From NCBI RefSeq assembly GCF_000018785.1, contig NC_010163.1, positions 660,001 to 692,000 of the forward strand: a stretch of 32,000 nt of DNA, read 5' to 3'. Every line of letters starts with the position of its first letter. The stretch's first letter is position 1. Positions 1 to 17,457 of the stretch are shown piece by piece. Both the position numbers and the translations under genes were made by a program. The notes beneath the pieces are model-generated. The model made no database searches, was not told the DNA's origin, and saw only the letters and a list, made by a program, of their open reading frames with translations. This DNA is from Acholeplasma laidlawii PG-8A. Lineage in GTDB: Bacteria; Bacillota_I; Bacilli_A; Acholeplasmatales; Acholeplasmataceae.

Positions 1-34
1 TGAAATTATTAACTTAGATAATAAAAAAGATGGA

Positions 35-1261
35 ATGATAGTTAAAACTTTGCCATCTGATACTTTTGATAATTTAAAGCTTTTCATAGAAGAGTTTAAC
101 ACCGAAATGCATGAAGCTGATGCTCTTGATTTTATGCGAGTTGGATATAAGCGAAACTATGGTGATGTTATTACCATAAGAAATTATGTCGGTTTGATTC
201 AAATGAATGATGGAACTCAAATAGAAGTATTACCCAAGCTTTCTTTTGAAGGTGAATATGAGACTATTGCTAAGCAAGTCTTTATTAAGATGCTCAGAAG
301 TCTTAAAGAGTTTTCAGGTAAGGTTTTTAATTCTGCAAGCTTAAATGTTGATCGTATGAATCTTTATGAGATTTTTATTAGCATGTACATTCAAGAAGTG
401 AGACATTTGGTTAAGACAGGTATCAAGTCTTTTTATGAAACTAAGGAAGATAATCTGAAGGTTTATAAAGGAAAATTAAAAGTAAAAGAGCAACAACGAT
501 ATAACAATGTCCATAAAGAGAGATTTTTTGTTGCTTATGACGAATATACGACTAATAGACCAGAGAATAGACTAATTAAAAGTACACTGTTAAAGCTGCA
601 AAAATTGTCGAATTATATAGAAAATGTCAAAGAAATACAAAACCTGTTAAATAGTTTTGAACTAATAGAACCATCTACCAACTTTGATAGTGATTTTTCT
701 AAGGTTACAATTAATAGAGGTAATAAAGAATACGAAACAATTATGATATGGTCAAAGGTGTTTTTATATAACAGAAGTTTTACTACTTTTTCTGGAAGTA
801 CTACAGCAAGAGCTTTATTATTCCCAATGGAGAAGATATTTGAATCGTATGTTGCTTCAGAGTTAAAAAAACACTTGCGTGATAAAGACTGGAGTATATC
901 AACACAAGACAAAGGCTTTTATTTATTCGATGAACCATCCAAGTTTTCACTTAGACCTGATATAGTTATAACTAAAGAAAATGACGAAACAATCATACTG
1001 GATACGAAGTGGAAAATACTAATAGATGATGAACGTAAGAACTATGGTGTTTCACAAGCAGATATGTATCAAATGTATGCATACGCTAAGAAGTATGAAT
1101 CAAAAAAAGTATTCGTTATTTATCCTTTGAACCCAGAAATGAGTAAATACGCTATAGATGGAATCGAATTTAGAAGTGAAGGGATTTCTGTTCAGTTACT
1201 ATTCATTGATTTGTTAAATGTTGATGATAGTCTTAAATACATTACGGACAAAATGATATGA
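35..1261 (+). CDS. mcrC: McrC, the nuclease subunit of a McrBC-type modification-dependent restriction system
   Basis: The 408-aa ORF shares blocks I recall from E. coli McrC: NRLIKSTLLKL (compare NRIIKSTLAIL), a PD-(D/E)xK core RPDIVI...IILDTKWK (nt 959-1009; compare ETDITI...LIIDAKYY), and QADMYQMYAYAK (compare SQNLYQLMNYLW). The reading frame is open back to nt 2, so the true start could lie upstream. An upstream gene could end at TGA 1-3 or TAG 15-17. Confidence 0.85.
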   Translation: MIVKTLPSDTFDNLKLFIEEFNTEMHEADALDFMRVGYKRNYGDVITIRNYVGLIQMNDGTQIEVLPKLSFEGEYETIAKQVFIKMLRSLKEFSGKVFNSASLNVDRMNLYEIFISMYIQEVRHLVKTGIKSFYETKEDNLKVYKGKLKVKEQQRYNNVHKERFFVAYDEYTTNRPENRLIKSTLLKLQKLSNYIENVKEIQNLLNSFELIEPSTNFDSDFSKVTINRGNKEYETIMIWSKVFLYNRSFTTFSGSTTARALLFPMEKIFESYVASELKKHLRDKDWSISTQDKGFYLFDEPSKFSLRPDIVITKENDETIILDTKWKILIDDERKNYGVSQADMYQMYAYAKKYESKKVFVIYPLNPEMSKYAIDGIEFRSEGISVQLLFIDLLNVDDSLKYITDKMI

Positions 1262-1347
1262 TTTTCTGGAATTCAAAAAAAATTATATTTAATTATTGCT
1301 ATATGTTATTCTCTTCACATAATCAAAGAAAAGGATGTGAAGATTAA

Positions 1348-1857
1348 ATGAATAATGAAAAAATAATTGATATAGGTACTCAAATAGTTTCAAAGATTCT
1401 GGACTTCCCAATACCCGAATTATATATAATAGAACAATCAAAATTGCCAAACAAAGAAATTACAGGTATTTATTCATTTGGTGAAAACGAGATTATATTT
1501 AATGAGGAGTGGGTTAATAGAAGTCAATGGATAGAGGTTATTATTACTGTGTTCCATGAAATGCGTCATGCCTACCAGGGTTATTGCATTAGAACGAAAA
1601 CTAGAGAATCAGCTGAAACTATAAAAGCATGGGAATCTGAAATTAACTGTTATATTATGCCTTCAGGAAAGAATAATGGAATAGATGATCAAAGCTACTT
1701 AACACAAGAAATAGAAATTGATGCGATCGCATTTGCTCATTGGATCGTCAAGAAAGAATTTGATCTAAAAACAGTAATACCGGATTTAATTAAAAAGAAA
1801 GTCAATGAAAAGATTAAGACATTTGAAATTATAGGAATAACTCAAATAAATCTGTAA
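1348..1857 (+). CDS. Small zincin-like putative metallopeptidase (FHEMRHAYQ motif), paralog A
   Basis: 169-aa ORF with HExxH at nt 1555-1569 (HEMRH) followed by AYQ. A downstream acidic E-x-x-A-x-x-(F/Y)-A segment (QEIEIDAIAFAH) could supply the third zinc ligand, as in gluzincins. No signal peptide or TM segment is visible. The family was not identified by eye. Confidence 0.6.
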   Translation: MNNEKIIDIGTQIVSKILDFPIPELYIIEQSKLPNKEITGIYSFGENEIIFNEEWVNRSQWIEVIITVFHEMRHAYQGYCIRTKTRESAETIKAWESEINCYIMPSGKNNGIDDQSYLTQEIEIDAIAFAHWIVKKEFDLKTVIPDLIKKKVNEKIKTFEIIGITQINL

Positions 1858-1888
1858 ATAAAGTGGCACTTGCCAGAGGGAGTTACAA

Positions 1889-1954
1889 ATGAGTAGCATC
1901 AATTCATTTTTTGATATTAAATTAGTTTTAAGAAAAGTTGGGATGGATATATGA
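1889..1954 (+). CDS. 21-codon micro-ORF (MSSINSFFDIKLVLRKVGMDI) translationally coupled to the second HExxH gene
   Basis: A strong SD (GAGGGAG, 1876-1882) lies 6 nt before ATG 1889. The stop TGA 1952-1954 overlaps ATG 1951 of the next gene (ATGA overlap). The downstream gene's own SD is weak (GGGATGG). There is no homology evidence. Confidence 0.3.
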   Translation: MSSINSFFDIKLVLRKVGMDI

Positions 1955-2631
1955 TTAATTGGCAAACGATATCAGAAAGAATAATGGATTTCATAGATTT
2001 AAATGAAGATAATAGACCAAGTTATCATAAGATCGATTCTTATAGTGTCAAATTTCTAGGAATTGATAAGACAATGTTTAGAAGTTCTAAAGACGGTGAT
2101 AGTATGGATCAGTTGTGGTTAAATGAAACCGAAGATGGTAAAATTATTCTCTATAAACTGTTTCATGAGTGTTGGCATGCATATCAAAAAAGTAAGGGTT
2201 ATGAAATGGGATACTCGGATGAAGATAGACTAAAATATGTAGGAAAACAACACATGATGATGCTTTATAAATATCCTTTTGAGGCTGAAGCAACAGGATA
2301 TGCAGCAGCTTTCGTCTATACCGTCTATAAATTTTCTGATCTATTAAATAAAAAGTGTTTTGACAAGAAAATTGAAGATTCTTATACAAATATTGAGCTC
2401 TTTCCAGAAAAAGAGTTTGATACTAAGAATGATTATTTAATAATTAATGAACAAATTGAGACAAATTATGAAAAGGGAAAATCTTATATAAAGAATCAGT
2501 TTAACACTTCATTGAGTAATGAAATGGAAAGTGTAATTGATGATTGTAAAGTAAACGATGAATTTAAAAAGCATCTTGTAAGTAAAAAGGGATTTATTAT
2601 TTTTGAAATCATTTCCGAATTGTCAAAATAG
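1951..2631 (+). CDS. Small zincin-like putative metallopeptidase (FHECWHAYQ motif), paralog B
   Basis: 226-aa ORF with HExxH at nt 2164-2178 (HECWH) followed by AYQ, and a downstream PFEAEATGYAAAF segment. It shares the motif architecture FHExxHAYQ ... E-x-x-A-x-x-(F/Y)-A with the 1348-1857 product, which suggests a tandem paralog pair. Confidence 0.6.
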   Translation: MINWQTISERIMDFIDLNEDNRPSYHKIDSYSVKFLGIDKTMFRSSKDGDSMDQLWLNETEDGKIILYKLFHECWHAYQKSKGYEMGYSDEDRLKYVGKQHMMMLYKYPFEAEATGYAAAFVYTVYKFSDLLNKKCFDKKIEDSYTNIELFPEKEFDTKNDYLIINEQIETNYEKGKSYIKNQFNTSLSNEMESVIDDCKVNDEFKKHLVSKKGFIIFEIISELSK

Positions 2632-2724
2632 GTCTTCGTAAAGGCATAGTATCGAAGTGGTAGCAACAGAAGTGCTCAAAGAGTTTTATCTACTTCCAGA
2701 AAGTTATGGAAAGGCGGTTGAAAA

Positions 2725-3732
2725 ATGAAAGAAAAAGACATTAAAGAAATAGAAGATATTTTAGGCTATACTTTTACAAATAAAAATTTATTAATTCAAG
2801 CCTTTACTCGAAGTTCTGAAAGAGAAAAAAATAACAATCGCGATTCTGAGATATTAGAGTTCATCGGAGATACTGTAATTAATTATGTAATTATTCAAAT
2901 GTTTAATAATAATTTGTTTAATGCAGATAATTACGGATTGAATTCTCAATATTCTGAGGGTGAGTTGACAGAATTAAAAAGCTTAATAGTAGAAAATAAA
3001 AATTTAGCCGCAAAAATAGACGATTTTGGTCTTGATCGTTTTTTAAGATCCGACAACTCAAAACAAATACCTTCATCTTTCAAAAGTGACTTATTAGAAA
3101 GCATTGTGGGGGCTATCGCAATCGATTCTCATTATGAAGAAAAGGAAATATATGAAATAGTAGATTATTTGTTAATGCCTCGTGCTTATATAGGGTCCTT
3201 AAAATTTAATTATTATTTAAAATTGAAACAATGGTGTAAAATTAGATGTACTTCATCAAATAAATTAAAAGAAAATGTAGAAGAAATTAAGAATGATAAC
3301 AACATACAGTATAAGACAACTTTGCGATTTGGTAACTATGAAGTAAGTGCTATAGATAATAGTAAAATAGATTCATTGTTTGAAGCTTCCATACTTGCCA
3401 TGAAAAAAATTACAGATAATAAAGATGAAATAACCATTAAAGATTTTTTAGTAGGCTTAGATCAAAATAACGGTTGGAGCTATCTTCAAAAAATCCAAAA
3501 ATTAGGCTATTGTTCCAACCTTTCAAAAGAATATAAGAAGAATGAAGATGGAACTTGGAAAGCGACATATATGGTTGACGGTATGCGAACATTGTACACT
3601 GATACCAATAAAAAAAATGCTGGAAATATATGTGCACTAATCTGCATCAACTCTTTAATTGAACCACGTTTCCAAATGGACGATAGTATCTTGGAGCTTT
3701 TAAGAAAATTAAATTATAAAGAAACGGCTTGA
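2725..3732 (+). CDS. Atypical RNase III-domain protein with an extended C-terminus carrying two dsRBD-like segments
   Basis: The N-terminus carries the RNase III signature SEILEFIGDTV (nt 2848-2871; compare ERLEFLGDAVL). The second catalytic block is SDLLESIVGAIAID (compare DxxEAxxGAxxxD). The C-terminal ~180 aa contain two segments ending in helices like the dsRBD alpha-2 helix: YKTTLRFGNYEVSAIDNSKIDSLFEASILAMKKI and WKATYMVDGMRTLYTDTNKKNAGNICALICINSL. At 335 aa it is longer than a typical bacterial Rnc (about 225-250 aa). Confidence 0.75.
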   Translation: MKEKDIKEIEDILGYTFTNKNLLIQAFTRSSEREKNNNRDSEILEFIGDTVINYVIIQMFNNNLFNADNYGLNSQYSEGELTELKSLIVENKNLAAKIDDFGLDRFLRSDNSKQIPSSFKSDLLESIVGAIAIDSHYEEKEIYEIVDYLLMPRAYIGSLKFNYYLKLKQWCKIRCTSSNKLKENVEEIKNDNNIQYKTTLRFGNYEVSAIDNSKIDSLFEASILAMKKITDNKDEITIKDFLVGLDQNNGWSYLQKIQKLGYCSNLSKEYKKNEDGTWKATYMVDGMRTLYTDTNKKNAGNICALICINSLIEPRFQMDDSILELLRKLNYKETA

Positions 3733-3753
3733 GCCACTTGTTAAGCCGAAAAT

Positions 3754-3813
3754 TAGGGGTGCGTAAATTTTAATAGGGGTGCGCAAATTTTAGTAGGGGT
3801 GCGTAATTGTATT
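3754..3813. repeat. Three head-to-tail 20-bp direct repeats: TAGGGGTGCG(T/C)AAATTTTA(A/G)
   Basis: Read directly. Unit 1 is 3754-3773 (TAGGGGTGCGTAAATTTTAA), unit 2 is 3774-3793 (TAGGGGTGCGCAAATTTTAG), and unit 3 is 3794-3813 (TAGGGGTGCGTAATTGTATT). The period is exactly 20 bp with no spacers. The array starts 22 nt after the RNase III-like stop codon. Confidence 0.9.
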
Positions 3814-3834
3814 AAAATAGGTCACCCAACACAG

Positions 3835-3869
3835 TCGAGTAATGGGGACTTGAACCCTATAAATCACTC
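3835..3869 (-). other. tRNA-like acceptor/T-arm minihelix fragment (possible tRNA 3'-end remnant or att-site relic)
   Basis: The minus strand reads GAGTGAT-TTA-TAGGG-TTCAAGT-CCCCA-TTACTCGA. It contains a T-loop-like GGTTCAAGTCC (plus-strand 3846-3856). GAGTGAT can pair with ATTACTC, with one G-U pair. No D or anticodon arm and no CCA follow, so it is not an intact tRNA. Confidence 0.25.
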
Positions 3870-4139
3870 TTTTGATGAAGGAATCAAACATTGTAATTGT
3901 ACCTGGTGATCTAGTGGAAAAACCAGTAAATATGTTACTTTGGTATTATAGACAGTTTTTGAGTATGTAAAGGTAAACATATTTTTGCCGATTTTGATGT
4001 TACTTTGATACACACAAGGTTGATTTTGCAAGCAATTCGGTCGCATCAACGCACGTTGAAAGTATTGTATTACTTGAATTAAAAATGTCTATGTAAAGCT
4101 ATCAAATAAACTATAAAAACTATTTATCTATAAGATTTA

Positions 4140-4170
4140 GGCTGGAAATTCATATTTCCAACCTTTTTTT
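4140..4170 (+). terminator. Rho-independent terminator closing the transcript that runs through the RNase III-like gene and its ~400-nt 3' non-coding region
   Basis: GGCTGGAAAT (4140-4149), loop TCAT, ATTTCCAACC (4154-4163): a 10-bp stem with one mismatch, followed by T7 (4164-4170). There is no U-tract on the other strand. Confidence 0.7.
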
Positions 4171-4618
4171 ATTAAGTCTATTTTTCTAATGTATTGTGAG
4201 AGCGTTTTGCGTGATTAGAATATTTTTAATAGGTTATGGAATAATAAATTTGAATTTGATTTTAATATGATGGATTGGATCAGTAAATGTACCCTCTGCA
4301 ACTGGTCTTTGTGTGAAGGACTTATCAATATTTGTGATATGGAAAGTGAGCATAACAAATCAAATTATATTATTTCATAACTTATATTGGATTATATGAT
4401 ACAGTAGGGATATAATATCGAGATGTTTTTCCAGGCATTAAGTATGAATTAACATATATTTGTAGAAAGGGAGATGATGTAAGATGTATAGTTAACAAAT
4501 GTCTTGACATAGTAACAGTTTTTAATATGTTCTATAGTTATAAACGTGATAAGTATCTAAAAGATAAGATAAATATACAAAATATGCAACAAAAATAGAA
4601 TAGGAGTTTTGAGGAAAT

Positions 4619-5092
4619 ATGAAAAAACTATTTTTATCAAGGTTTATAATAGGGGGAGTCTTGATTTTATGTTTAGGATTATTAGCTGGATGTGAAAACA
4701 GTATGTATAAGGAAGTTGATTTTGGTGGAACATTCTCAAGTCCGGGAATTAACATTGAACCCTTACTAATTAAGGAATACGATGAATTAGTTTCCTTATT
4801 TAATGAGTATGAGATTGAGTGGGAAAATGGATTGGCAATATGGGAGCGATATGATAAAGGTTATTTTAAGAATAAGGCACTAATAATTTATGTCTTTGGG
4901 GTTTCTGGCGATGTAGAACCCCTTATAACAATTGATGGAGTGCAAGTTGATGATAATATTATTAAAGTTTTACTTGTTCAGCACGGAACAACAACTGGAC
5001 TTGCATATTTCCAAAAAAACCTTGTCATAGAAGTAACCAAAAGTTTTATTGGTAAGACAACTAGTGTAGAAGTTGATATCAAAGTTAAATAA
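4619..5092 (+). CDS. Putative lipoprotein of unknown function
   Basis: 157-aa ORF. SD GAGGAAAT lies 5 nt upstream. The signal peptide ends in the lipobox LLAGC (MKKLFLSRFIIGGVLILCLGLLAG|C). The mature part is soluble and beta-rich. A faint resemblance to PrcB_C-type lipoproteins is my impression only. Confidence 0.7.
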   Translation: MKKLFLSRFIIGGVLILCLGLLAGCENSMYKEVDFGGTFSSPGINIEPLLIKEYDELVSLFNEYEIEWENGLAIWERYDKGYFKNKALIIYVFGVSGDVEPLITIDGVQVDDNIIKVLLVQHGTTTGLAYFQKNLVIEVTKSFIGKTTSVEVDIKVK

Positions 5093-5117
5093 GAAACATA
5101 TTAAAGAGGATTTGTCT

Positions 5118-5219
5118 ATGAGAAATGGTAATAAAGCCACAAATAAGATTAAGATATACATTGTGAGATTTTATTATCAGGGTCAAGTATCAGAGGTTTT
5201 CATATGGTATTTAGAGTAA
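5118..5219 (+). CDS. 33-aa mini-ORF (MRNGNKATNKIKIYIVRFYYQGQVSEVFIWYLE) downstream of the lipoprotein gene
   Basis: SD AAAGAGGA (5103-5110) lies 7 nt before ATG 5118. The ORF starts 25 nt after the lipoprotein stop and sits before the terminator at 5301. It could be a real small protein or the remnant of a decayed gene. Confidence 0.3.
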   Translation: MRNGNKATNKIKIYIVRFYYQGQVSEVFIWYLE

Positions 5220-5300
5220 TCACAAACAGACTAAGTATATAGAAAATATCGTTCTTCTCGAGTTAAAATAACATAGTAAATTACAAAGTGTATAAATAAA

Positions 5301-5332
5301 CAGCCATATCGCATAGTAATATGGCTGTTTTT
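5301..5332 (+). terminator. Rho-independent terminator
   Basis: CAGCCATAT (5301-5309), 9-nt loop, ATATGGCTG (5319-5327), then T5 (5328-5332). Confidence 0.7.
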
Positions 5333-5603
5333 CTATATCGATAGGTGAAATATAATTTAGAGAAAATTATAGATAATCATATCTAATTATTTCAATACAA
5401 ACTTAAACTAAAATTCTGCTTTTGTAAGCTTATACTCCCTAATGAATTCACCGTATCGTATTTTAAAAGAGATTTCAATCATTCAAATAAACTTTTTAGT
5501 TTTTGGTGCGAAGGTTATTAGTCTATAAAAACAAAAACTTCTTAATTGATACATCTTTTTCTATTATAAATATGTATTGAATTGCTAAAAGAACACATAA
5601 ATT

Positions 5604-5631
5604 TTGAATATATGTTCATTTAAGATATAAT
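5604..5631 (+). promoter_or_regulatory. Sigma-A type promoter candidate for the HAD hydrolase gene
   Basis: -35 TTGAAT (5604-5609), 16-nt spacer, -10 TATAAT (5626-5631), about 50 nt upstream of ATG 5685. Confidence 0.5.
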
Positions 5632-5684
5632 GGTCTATGATCAATCATTTATGCGTGATGACAATATAAAAAAGAGGTTTTACA

Positions 5685-6398
5685 ATGAAAAAAATGTTTG
5701 TTTTTGATTATGATGGGACTTACTACAGGAATAATGAAGAACTTCAAAACAACATAAAACTTATGAATAGTGCACGAAAAAAGGGGCATTTACTTGTTAT
5801 TGCAACAGGAAGAAGTTATGTAAGTTTTATGAAAGAAGTAGAGAAATTTAATATTGACTATGACTATCTAATCTTATCTAGTGGTGCATTAATAATAGAT
5901 AAAAATGAGCATATCATAGGTTCATATATGATGGATTTAAATCTAGTAAAAGGTGTTAACAAATTACTAGAACCGTATCATGCGAGTTTACAATCTCAAA
6001 TGTATATAGATGAGTTCATGAATAGTGAAATATTATCTCAACTTAATCAAGTCATTAAAATGACCTATACCTTTAATAAAGGTGATATCTGTTATGAGAT
6101 TCAACAATCAGTTAATACATACACCCATGAAGAATTTAAAACATATGTCGTTGCTGGTACATCTTATGATTATGTAGAAATTATTTCATCTAAGACAAAT
6201 AAGGCTGTAGCTATACTAGATTTACTAAAACATATTCAAGAAGACTACACAATAGTTGCTGCAGGTGATAGTGAAAATGATGTTGAGATGCTTATTGAAT
6301 TTGATGGTTATTTAATGAACAATCATGATCCTAGACTGGATACCTACCGATTAAGAATTGTTGATTCTATAGAATCCATTGTAAAAAAAGAAATTTAA
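5685..6398 (+). CDS. HAD-superfamily hydrolase, Cof-type (HAD-IIB) sugar-phosphatase-like
   Basis: Motif I FDYDGT at the N-terminus, motif IV GDSENDVEM near the C-terminus, and a cap region between them. SD AAGAGGT lies 7 nt upstream. Confidence 0.8.
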   Translation: MKKMFVFDYDGTYYRNNEELQNNIKLMNSARKKGHLLVIATGRSYVSFMKEVEKFNIDYDYLILSSGALIIDKNEHIIGSYMMDLNLVKGVNKLLEPYHASLQSQMYIDEFMNSEILSQLNQVIKMTYTFNKGDICYEIQQSVNTYTHEEFKTYVVAGTSYDYVEIISSKTNKAVAILDLLKHIQEDYTIVAAGDSENDVEMLIEFDGYLMNNHDPRLDTYRLRIVDSIESIVKKEI

Positions 6399-16235: not shown

Positions 16236-16241
16236 GTTTTT

Positions 16242-16470
16242 CAAAGTGATGAAGAAGAGTAGTAATTTATTTAACTTTTCATAGAGAGCTGATGATTGGT
16301 GTAAATCAGTAAAAGTGATGAATGAACGTGCTTTGGAGCTTTTAAATCGAGTTTTGATGAGGTTTAAACGTATGTCGGCGTTAACGATATAAGTGCTAGG
16401 TTTTTAATCTAGAACTAAGGTGGTACCGCGATTAACTCGTCCTTAGACATTATTGTCTAGGGACTTTTTT
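16242..16470 (+). promoter_or_regulatory. T-box riboswitch leader, complete unit (Stem I, T-box sequence, antiterminator/terminator)
   Basis: A GA/K-turn-like region (GTGATGAAG) and AGAGTA come first. The AG bay is AGAGAG (16283-16288). The distal stem is CTGAT/ATCAG with the loop GATTGGTGTAA. The T-box sequence is CTAAGGTGGTACCGCG (16415-16430). The antiterminator pairs CTAAGG (16415-16420) with CCTTAG (16441-16446). The competing terminator is GTCCTTAGACA (16439-16449) / TGTCTAGGGAC (16454-16464) plus T6. The candidate specifier is CGT at 16327-16329, in the loop GAA-CGT-G. Confidence 0.85.
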
Positions 16471-16647: not shown

Positions 16648-17457
16648 ATGATTAAAAAAATGTTATCAATGTTTATGGTGATGGGTGTTATAACGCTCAT
16701 AGTTGGATGTGATATGGGAAGTTCAAATACATTCACATTTATTATTGATGAATCTTATGATGAATATATTACAATGGGAACATCTGCAGACTATGCACCA
16801 TATGAATGGTTAGTAAAAGATGAAAATAATAACCAAACAGTTGTTGGTATTGATATTGAAATTGCTAAAGTTATCGCTAAACATGCTGGTAAAAACTTAA
16901 AAGTAATTCATAAAGGATTTGATTTTTTACTAGAAGACTTAGCAGATGGTCGTGTTGACTTTGTCATCTCAGCAATGACACCAACACCTGAACGTGCAGA
17001 AATTGTAGATTTTTCAACTGTCTATTACATGGCCACACAAGTCGTATTAATTGAAACTAAAAATATGGATGTATATACTTCAGTAGCGTCTATGAACCTT
17101 TCTAATATTAGAATAGGCGCACAGTTAGGTTCTATCCAACAAGATTATGCAAATGATCTATTTGATGCACCTCAAAAACAATTTATTCAAGCAGTACCTG
17201 ACTTAGTGTTAGGGTTAACAAGCGGTCAATTAGCTGGTGTAATTATGGAAAAACCAGTTGCTGAAGGTTATATCAATAATATGACGAGTCTTTCTATTGC
17301 AAACTTTACACTAGGTAATCCAGAAGATGGATCTGCTGTTGCTGTAAGAAAGGGAAATAAAGCACTACTAGAACTTATCAATGATACAATTCAAATACTC
17401 CAAGAATCAGGTCAAATCGAGCAGTTTGTTAAAGATAGTGTTTTATTAAATAGTTAA
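16648..17457 (+). CDS. Polar amino acid ABC transporter substrate-binding lipoprotein (family 3 SBP)
   Basis: Signal peptide with lipobox LIVGC. Contains SADYAPYEW, GIDIEIAK..., DFVISAMTPTPER and VDFS, typical of His/Arg/Gln/cystine-type binding proteins. SD AAAGGAG is present. Confidence 0.85.
   Translation: MIKKMLSMFMVMGVITLIVGCDMGSSNTFTFIIDESYDEYITMGTSADYAPYEWLVKDENNNQTVVGIDIEIAKVIAKHAGKNLKVIHKGFDFLLEDLADGRVDFVISAMTPTPERAEIVDFSTVYYMATQVVLIETKNMDVYTSVASMNLSNIRIGAQLGSIQQDYANDLFDAPQKQFIQAVPDLVLGLTSGQLAGVIMEKPVAEGYINNMTSLSIANFTLGNPEDGSAVAVRKGNKALLELINDTIQILQESGQIEQFVKDSVLLNS

Follow-up and report, generated by a model that had tools for sequence, protein, structure and literature searches.

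Gene content of the McrBC-linked region

We describe here a gene cluster at the start of a 32,000-nucleotide (nt) stretch of the Acholeplasma laidlawii PG-8A chromosome (NC_010163.1, positions 660,001 to 692,000, forward strand), hereafter called the window, in which the restriction gene mcrC is followed by two genes for HExxH-type metallopeptidases (zincins), named here zinA and zinB, a gene for an unusual ribonuclease III (RNase III), a set of short direct repeats, and a noncoding tail. The features are listed below in window positions, and the loci with which they were compared carry L numbers throughout.

1 to 1261, + strand: mcrC, McrBC type IV restriction subunit; the reading frame is open from the window edge, with the first ATG at 35
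1270 to 1802, + strand: recombinase-zinA homologous segment, comprising the zinA leader and most of zinA, from blastn against related prophages
1348 to 1857, + strand: zinA, putative small SprT-like or minigluzincin-like metallopeptidase with the motifs HEMRHAYQ and, downstream, QEIEIDA
1889 to 1954, + strand: micro-open reading frame (micro-ORF) of 21 codons, translated as MSSINSFFDIKLVLRKVGMDI up to the stop; it overlaps the zinB start and is unsupported as a gene
1951 to 2631, + strand: zinB, orphan HExxH protein with the motifs HECWHAYQ and, downstream, FEAEA
2695 to 3833, + strand: promoter-less unit of the RNase III gene and its closing element ("RNase III + END"), from homology with L005
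2725 to 3732, + strand: RNase III paralogue of 335 amino acids (aa), ABX81253.1 / A9NFX3, PF00636 and PF14622
3754 to 3813, + strand: three iteron-like 20-nt direct repeats, TAGGGGTGCGyAAATTTTAr
3808 to 3833, + strand: 26-nt core, TGTATTAAAATAGGTCACCCAACACA, nearly invariant among 47 distinct copies
3834 to 4065, no strand assigned: noncoding segment traveling with the island, 99.6 to 99.9% identity in L287-L289
4141 to 4170, + strand: terminator-like hairpin followed by U7, free energy (dG) -12.3 kcal/mol, z -3.26, in the strain-specific flank

As the original prediction had noted, the ORFs lie on the same strand with gaps of less than 100 nt (86 nt between mcrC and zinA, and 93 nt both between zinA and zinB and between zinB and the RNase III gene), and no + strand terminator-like site was called between these four genes. 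The region had also been described as AT-rich, a description that did not hold up: its GC content is 0.29 to 0.31, compared to 0.26 to 0.38 in the rest of the window, and no AT-richness marking foreign DNA was seen. By exact look-up, the RNase III and zinB products are ABX81253.1 and ABX81252.1 of A. laidlawii, and the zinA product shares 99% identity with a protein of this species. The intergenic sequence around the micro-ORF at 1889-1954 gave no significant fold (z -1.0), and homologues of this ORF were not sought.

The McrC protein matched PF10117 with an E value of 1e-90 over profile positions 2 to 318 of 318 and scored 96.7 bits against the NCBIfam McrC model, below its 338-bit equivalog cutoff. 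The gene is annotated as encoding 430 aa in five assemblies, and its start very probably lies 66 nt to the left of the window edge, as judged from these sequences. McrC follows McrB, recognized by its AAA_5 and McrB_lid domains, in L094-L098 and L287-L289. While McrB is intact at 814 aa in the metagenomic loci L287-L289, five A. laidlawii assemblies have mcrB split into parts of 569 aa and 256 to 275 aa through a single additional A in a homopolymer, which is an A9 run in these assemblies (L094 7836-7844, approximately 820 nt left of the window start) and A8 in L287. Phase variation, decay of the gene, and a sequencing artefact are all conceivable causes of this difference. The Trypsin_2 gene adjoining mcrB also differs by a single base, giving products of 202 versus 271 aa.

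Homology breakpoints point to a mosaic prophage end

The first 6 kb of the window match five A. laidlawii assemblies at 99.93 to 99.97% identity. The sequence to the left of the window holds, in these assemblies, genes of the phage tail region, two holins, large serine recombinase fragments, Trypsin_2, and McrB, and the gene order continues with McrC (430 aa), zinA, zinB, and the RNase III gene. In the related prophages L109, L110, L113, and L236, tail genes come first, then two holins and SHOCT, then a pair of large serine recombinases, and finally zinA and variable cargo. When the A. laidlawii locus L094 was compared with L109, the tail genes and holins were found to be homologous, only the last ~1 kb of recombinase 2 was left, and a 4.85-kb Trypsin_2-McrBC block was inserted between this recombinase remnant and the zinA leader. 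Homology restarts 78 nt before the zinA start (window 1270) and ends approximately 55 nt short of its stop; in blastn, L094 9923-10455 is 76% identical to L109, L110, L111, and L112.

Farther to the right, the window is homologous to L005 over a stretch that opens approximately 30 nt ahead of the ATG of the RNase III gene and reaches into the first repeat, in which the L005 contig ends. L005 is the closest locus, its RNase III being 85% identical, and its upstream gene, coding for an SRA/NOV_C-like nuclease, is unrelated. Three metagenomic islands (L287-L289) are 99.6 to 99.9% identical to the window and diverge from it at 4061-4085; therefore, the segment 3834-4065 moves together with the island, unlike the terminator at 4141-4170. 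This terminator would belong to the neighboring chromosome. The predicted single terminated noncoding tail thus survives in part: the repeats and the 4141-4170 hairpin are real, but the tail consists of three different pieces, namely, a conserved DNA element (3733-3833), the island-linked segment (3834-4065), and a strain-specific flank from 4066 onward.

According to these nucleotide homology breakpoints, the region consists of four or more pieces acquired separately, which, on the sequence comparisons, are the Trypsin-McrBC insertion, the backbone gene zinA, zinB as an orphan, and the unit formed by the RNase III gene and its closing element. Taken as a whole, window 1-4065 is probably the end at which a decayed prophage or integrative element of the serine-recombinase type carries its cargo, and a mosaic of independently acquired genes rather than one system. 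In its layout it resembles the defense and moron cargo found near the attachment site at prophage ends, with restriction and accessory genes filling the space from the lysis and recombinase genes to the element end, and with a content that varies among related prophages. It differs in that the slots are punctuated by a conserved iteron-plus-core element and in that the PG-8A prophage has lost most of its recombinase genes.

The original prediction had instead taken the McrBC-linked zinA, zinB, RNase III gene, and repeat RNA as a single phage-sensing or abortive-infection operon ending at 4170. The common strand, the 86- to 93-nt gaps, and the lack of a called terminator between the genes agree with such an operon, as does the identity of the block, above 99.5%, in A. 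laidlawii assemblies and three metagenome contigs. It is also in line with an operon that no promoter region belonging to the RNase III unit is conserved in the comparison with L005, so that the unit probably depends on upstream transcription; read-through from the upstream genes would provide it. This conservation is confined to one lineage, though, and outside it the genes have separate distributions and are parted by homology breakpoints. The nine other RNase III contexts examined for co-occurrence all lack zinB, and a zinA relative is present in just two of them, at 29 to 33% identity and at differing distances and sides. In addition, the repeats belong to a DNA element that also follows unrelated cargo genes, and they show no conserved RNA folding; the shared island ends before the 4141-4170 terminator, and the isolates have a frameshifted McrB. 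The single-system model fails because zinA, zinB, and the RNase III gene do not co-occur outside the lineage, a refutation that the prediction itself had named, and we consider it very improbable. Further work should not treat the five genes as one "system", which saves cloning effort. Two wider statements of the prediction fared better: the region is a defense or accessory island, and the combination matches no named system, there being no PADLOC match.

Two zincins with separate distributions

The zinA product scored 25.3 bits against PF10263, just under the gathering cutoff of 25.6, and also matched DUF3920; PF10263 is among the precomputed Pfam assignments of several of its homologues, which number more than 170. 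Residues H70, E71, H74, and E123 are invariant in 30 homologues. The AlphaFold 2 (AF2) model, with a predicted local distance difference test (pLDDT) score of 89, gave weak Foldseek matches to jannalysin/selecase, IrrE, and SPRTN, the best being jannalysin (E = 7.6e-3; template modeling scores 0.35/0.51), with SPRTN 6mdx at E = 0.79. By sequence, no significant match to zinA was obtained among solved structures, and none was found in cultured phages. Because zinA occupies a fixed place after two serine recombinases in L109, L110, L113, and L236, it is, judged by gene order, a backbone gene of an Acholeplasma prophage family. Homologues of zinA were found in prophages without the RNase III, and in a second lineage, represented by L280, the order is McrC, a 198-aa protein, zinA, and a 111-aa protein, with neither zinB nor the RNase III. 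In L113/L114, a GmrSD gene overlaps the 3' end of the zincin gene by 23 nt.

No Pfam, NCBIfam, PADLOC, or PHROG family matched zinB, and its zincin ligands, HECWH and FEAEA, were recognized by eye. Twelve relatives were present among 1.84 billion representatives; two zinB homologues adjoin HNH or AbiH genes, with the RNase III not present. A pattern search of Joint Genome Institute (JGI) metagenomes returned no zinB relatives. The HExxH motifs were thus correctly predicted in both proteins, but the proposal that the two are paralogues is weakly founded, as a BLASTP comparison of zinA with zinB gave E = 0.001 over 24 residues around HExxHAYQ and nothing elsewhere. Both recall the SprT-like proteins and minigluzincins (PF10263; jannalysin, selecase, SPRTN, and IrrE) in the HExxH helix, the downstream Glu ligand, and the small soluble size. 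They differ from them in that zinA is specific to Acholeplasma-type prophages and has a sub-cutoff Pfam score, and in that zinB matches no family.

A rare RNase III with two dsRNA-binding folds

The RNase III domain was recognized with PF00636 at E = 2.4e-13, and the residues E42, E45, D49, D122, and E125 are invariant in an alignment of 20 sequences. The AF2 model (pLDDT 91) comprises a catalytic domain at 1-150 and two alpha-beta3-alpha folds resembling the double-stranded RNA (dsRNA)-binding domain (dsRBD) at 159-231 and 250-312; this confident model bears out the prediction of an atypical RNase III with two dsRBDs. Foldseek matched it to the Aquifex and Escherichia coli RNase III-dsRNA complexes, plant DCL3, and Dicer, with DCL3 at the top (E = 2.7e-12, 370 aligned columns), whereas the sequence profile matched solved structures over the catalytic domain only. 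We predict that the protein would be a catalytically active, dimeric dsRNA endonuclease.

Compared with class 1 RNase III (Rnc; Aquifex aeolicus 2EZ6 and E. coli 7R97), the protein has the same order of ExxExxGD and DxxE acidic residues followed by a dsRBD, and the bacterial RNase III-dsRNA complexes are its best structural matches. It departs from class 1 in its second dsRBD-like fold, in having QAFTRSS in place of the usual ALTHxS, and in belonging to a family that is extremely rare, is found on mobile elements, and always lies beside defense genes. With DCL3/DCL4, Dicer, and Drosha, eukaryotic enzymes that are antiviral or dsRNA processing, it shares an RNase III domain followed by one or more dsRBDs. 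Unlike these enzymes it has a single RNase III domain, so dimerization is required, and it has no helicase or PAZ domain; identity is approximately 20%.

Full-length relatives of the protein are scarce, approximately 16 in 5.8 billion proteins, with 43 to 85% identity, and only one (L014) was found among 185,579 species-representative genomes, none coming from another Acholeplasma. In cultured phages, the only matches were to the N-terminal domain at less than 33% identity, and viral contigs held only distant relatives.

One alternative is that the protein is the divergent housekeeping rnc of A. laidlawii, placed beside the island by chance. The original annotation of ABX81253.1 as a dsRNA-specific ribonuclease and the intact catalytic residues agree with this, and a Mollicutes survey, which gives no locus tags, reported RNase III in all species except M. 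suis (PMC4014445). The NCBI name, on the other hand, is only "RNase III family/domain-containing", and the score against the rnc equivalog TIGR02191 was 80.8 bits, compared to a cutoff of 166.25. Where a housekeeping rnc has one dsRBD and approximately 220 to 250 aa, this protein has two dsRBD folds and 335 aa. It is also hard to reconcile a housekeeping function with a family of so few members worldwide, with relatives that all lie in variable mobile or defense contexts, and with the position of the L005 gene, which has a different upstream gene and is followed by the beginning of the same closing element. Altogether, the family test, distribution, and context support the earlier claim that this is not an ordinary housekeeping rnc, and we regard the housekeeping alternative as improbable.

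A search with the 246-aa Acholeplasmatales RNase III for canonical rnc brought up a larger group of 340- to 390-aa RNase III proteins with the QAFTR motif, a recognizable dsrm domain, and extra C-terminal sequence (L015-L093; P0176-P0229). This group occurs in metagenome-assembled genomes of Clostridia/Eubacteriales, mostly from rumen and gut. There were tblastn matches in 375 species genomes, a count of matches to pattern-selected stretches of these QAFTR-type proteins.

RNase III neighborhoods and proposed role

In nine of nine contexts, members of the RNase III family are encoded directly behind known or candidate defense systems on the same strand. The genes upstream of the RNase III gene are as follows (R-M, restriction-modification; HTH, helix-turn-helix).

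L001: Type IIG R-M, UvrD, and Schlafen-like helicase
L002: serine recombinase, HTH, helicase, MTaX1, Dcm, HATPase, and Z1
L004: MPN635-like protein
L005: SRA/NOV_C-like nuclease
L006: Type I R-M, DUF2971, and DUF3800
L009: SNF2 helicase and D12 methylase
L010-L013: 694-aa helicase
L014: Type III R-M, AAA_23, and HTH_73

PADLOC recognized PDC-S53 (E = 1.9e-288), PDC-S31, PbeC/DndD, PDC-S57, type IIG R-M, and PDC-S41/Nhi among these neighbors. When PADLOC-DB 2.0 was searched with five proteins including zinA, zinB, the RNase III, and a 157-aa protein encoded farther downstream, no family was matched at E ≤ 0.1, and a literature search found no RNase III-based anti-phage gene.

In the main clade, a 50%-identity clade, the RNase III gene lies in a 2-kb block that is 80 to 96% identical at the DNA level between loci differing on both flanks. 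This block consists of a short leader, the RNase III gene, an ORF for a 35-aa hydrophobic peptide, and a gene for a 222-aa protein. Because its identity holds while both flanks vary, the block is, as far as these alignments tell, a self-contained mobile module. Its coordinates are as follows.

L001: 10001-11900
L002: 10001-11802
L006: 10001-11802
L010: 4334-6128
L013: 2583-4377

The ORF for the 35-aa peptide (MYETGVVIIFILSMLIPN...) overlaps the start of the gene for the 222-aa protein, which has no family match. The leader of the main clade is approximately 190 nt long with two copies of ATGTGAACGCC / AGTGAACGGC (L002 9811-10000; L004 1527-1716; L009 9802-10000), and its homology with the variable upstream cassettes begins exactly at the first copy. 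L001 and L006 lack approximately 115 nt between the two copies, as if deleted between repeats. Folding of the long leader of this clade in just three sequences gave essentially no covariation, and the fold of the zinB-RNase III intergenic region was not significant (z +0.69).

We propose that the RNase III would act alone, and not with the zincins, as a gene of inter-element conflict, be it between phage and host or between elements. Most likely, it would cleave long dsRNA or structured transcripts of phages as a defense against them. The rare subfamily is absent from PADLOC and merits attention as a candidate new conflict gene. A more far-reaching view is that it represents a stand-alone mobile antiviral RNase III, a bacterial counterpart of Dicer/Drosha-type dsRNA immunity, carried on a promoter-less cassette that ends in the site of an undescribed serine-recombinase cassette-capture system that, in Acholeplasma-type phages and elements, would also carry resistance-type genes; in this full form, the view is speculative and we give it little weight.

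The main alternative to a stand-alone conflict role is that the RNase III takes part in RNA control of the mobile element itself. It might serve the element by processing or silencing the element's own transcripts, by controlling neighboring defense genes, or by counter-defense against RNA-based host immunity, and variants of this idea are that it might act in antisense control or, together with the 35-aa hydrophobic peptide, as a pair resembling a type I toxin-antitoxin system. The joint movement of the RNase III, peptide, and 222-aa protein genes as one 2-kb block speaks for such a service, as does the presence of the RNase III in serine-recombinase elements with HTH_17/HTH_36 backbone genes. 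In Bacillus subtilis, RNase III is reportedly essential only through silencing of prophage type I toxins, a result ascribed to Durand et al. 2012. Against a service to the element, L001 and L010-L012 have a frameshifted gene for the 222-aa partner beside an intact RNase III gene, and both this partner gene and that for the 35-aa peptide are absent from the clade of the window RNase III. No antisense RNA or toxin was identified, and the block, variable on both flanks, does not behave as a fixed backbone gene. We consider a service to the element rather doubtful, though worth keeping beside the conflict role.

An iteron-plus-core element resembling a recombination site

The RNase III gene is followed by a tandem repeat at 3754-3806 with a period of 20 nt and 2.7 copies, which a second analysis resolved as three copies (3754-3813). 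These repeats and the 26-nt core recur in 62 further copies at approximately 56 metagenomic or viral loci, which represent phages and elements of the Acholeplasma type. Each copy has three to five iterons of 20 to 21 nt before the core, and the iteron sequence, GGGGTGCG or GGGGTGTAG, co-varies within an element. Copies of the element lie at the following positions.

Window: 3733-3833
L109: 8505-8651 and 10525-10637
L112: 850-973 and 2580-2683
L235: 5345-5471
L236: 10915-11020
L237-L286: copies in these loci

The sequence had originally been read as a repeat-bearing or structured RNA. This reading was not upheld: folding of 3725-3885 was marginal (z -2.2), no consensus RNA structure was predicted across 47 copies, and the same sequence is a DNA element at 62 other places. 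No Rfam 15 family reached its gathering score in 3600-5750, where the weak matches were at chance level and lay elsewhere, and ARAGORN found no tRNA or transfer-messenger RNA (tmRNA) in the window. A tRNA remnant or attachment (att) site at 3844-3857, suggested by the T-arm look of GGGTTCAAGTCCCC on the minus strand, was rejected, as neither an ARAGORN tRNA nor an Rfam tRNA or tmRNA was found there; the hairpin at 3834-3866 was not significant (z -0.42). We also rejected the tail as a decayed gene for the 222-aa partner, since tblastn of the downstream proteins against the window returned nothing. In a viral scan, the pattern GGGGTGCG-N-GGGGTGCG was nonspecific, with more than 120 chance matches, and an exact-repeat scan of viral contigs gave nothing.

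Similarity between element copies stops directly after ...ACACA, and every copy is preceded by a co-oriented ORF ending 90 to 310 nt upstream. The genes closed in this way encode GNAT acetyltransferases, an Erm-like rRNA methylase, APH, ANT(2''), an antiporter, a subtilase, a response regulator, ABC-2 permeases, and zinA itself. Eight contigs carry two copies in direct orientation, 1.5 to 10 kb apart. An inverted copy of the outer 10 nt of the core (TTGTATCAAA / TTTGATACAA) is present at a fixed 15-nt offset in 26 of 51 distinct right flanks and at any offset in 30 of 51, compared to a shuffle mean of 3.9. The resulting 52-bp dyad is centered within 1 nt of the ...ACACA breakpoint; the window copy has a nonconsensus right flank without the inverted outer motif. 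The L111 contig ends exactly at the core, the L005 contig ends within the repeats, and in many others the core lies within approximately 150 nt of the contig end. Two Resolvase+Recombinase+Zn_ribbon proteins are encoded 0.6 to 1.2 kb upstream of the element in L109, L110, and L236, with only remnants in A. laidlawii.

Because a 52-bp dyad coincides with the breakpoint and paired serine recombinases are adjacent, the iteron-plus-core element looks like a serine-recombinase attachment or recombination site with accessory iterons. Both features are those of large-serine-recombinase att sites, i.e., an imperfect dyad of 40 to 55 bp around the crossover and adjacent large serine recombinase genes. 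The element would then work as DNA, as an att-type recombination site of the large serine recombinases, and cargo genes would pile up between successive copies.

In the staphylococcal cassette chromosome (SCC; CcrA/CcrB) and in integron cassettes, as here, the cargo genes share one orientation and each ends in a short conserved site, and unrelated cargo, with resistance-type genes among it, is flanked by direct repeats of that site; SCC also has two adjacent large serine recombinases. The element differs from integron cassettes in having neither an attC-like hairpin (no consensus hairpin in 47 copies) nor a tyrosine integrase, the associated recombinases being of the serine type, and from SCC in its three to five upstream 20-nt iterons and in a 26-nt core that does not resemble the integration sites of SCC. 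Most units here also carry their own terminator, unlike in either system, and recombination at the element is a prediction. If it is a recombination site, the element would define an undescribed cassette-exchange mechanism in wall-less Firmicutes and phages (no literature search was made for the element). The cargo genes number in the dozens and include Erm-like, APH, ANT(2''), and GNAT genes along with restriction genes.

Alternatively, the iterons and core could form a transcriptional or regulatory end-module, such as an operator array or a protein-binding 3' region before a terminator. A strong hairpin with a T-run follows most copies within 25 to 45 nt, the inverted outer motif is often part of the terminator stem, and a co-oriented ORF before every copy would be expected of such a module. 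Less easily explained by it are the exact break of homology at ...ACACA, the contig ends at this point in L111 and in the repeats in L005, the coincidence of the dyad center with the breakpoint, the direct-repeat pairs that bracket unrelated cargo, and the paired large serine recombinases next to the element. We hold a regulatory end-module to be possible, if not the likelier of the two functions.

Two observations concern the flanks. The alternative right flank of the metagenomic islands (L287 10600-10700; L288 11320-11420) carries the motif AAAACCGCTTAACAAAGCCAT with a terminator directly after it. The same motif also precedes the iterons at most element copies and may be a separate module of the element.

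Points weighing against a mosaic of independent genes

Several observations weigh against the reading of the locus as a mosaic of independently acquired genes closed by a recombination site. Co-transcription of the five genes is possible, as no terminator was found between them. A zinA-type zincin lies near the RNase III gene in 3 of approximately 10 contexts (the window, L001, and L005), and zinA-type genes adjoin three type IV restriction families, i.e., McrBC (the window and L280), GmrSD (L113), and the SRA-like nuclease (L005), at the following positions.

Window: 1348-1857
L113: 8001-10212
L280: 6-2315
L005: 408-2638

This could reflect some functional link between the zincins and this type of island, or chance within a cargo hotspot. 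With regard to the RNase III, a second A. laidlawii rnc was not found with the 246-aa Acholeplasmatales RNase III query or in the literature, a search that did not extend to the whole PG-8A genome, and this gene might be the only RNase III gene of the cell, used for housekeeping; its part in defense is a candidate role drawn from its neighborhoods. As for the element, the core is inferred to be an att site on the grounds of symmetry and breakpoints; neither an empty site nor an excision junction or circle, nor an inverted partner at the far prophage end, was seen in the loci compared, and all copy pairs are direct repeats.

Other features of the window

Two features outside the island were also recorded. 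A T-box leader (RF00230, 149.6 bits) lies at window 16240-16447, upstream of the gene for the binding protein of an amino-acid ABC transporter (16648-17457), and is ordinary. The ORF for the 157-aa protein, at window 4619-5092, encodes a signal peptide and a lipobox-like LLAGC and has no family match. Relatives of this protein with 41% identity are encoded in L244 and L263, near element copies in which unrelated sequence replaces the iterons before the core.

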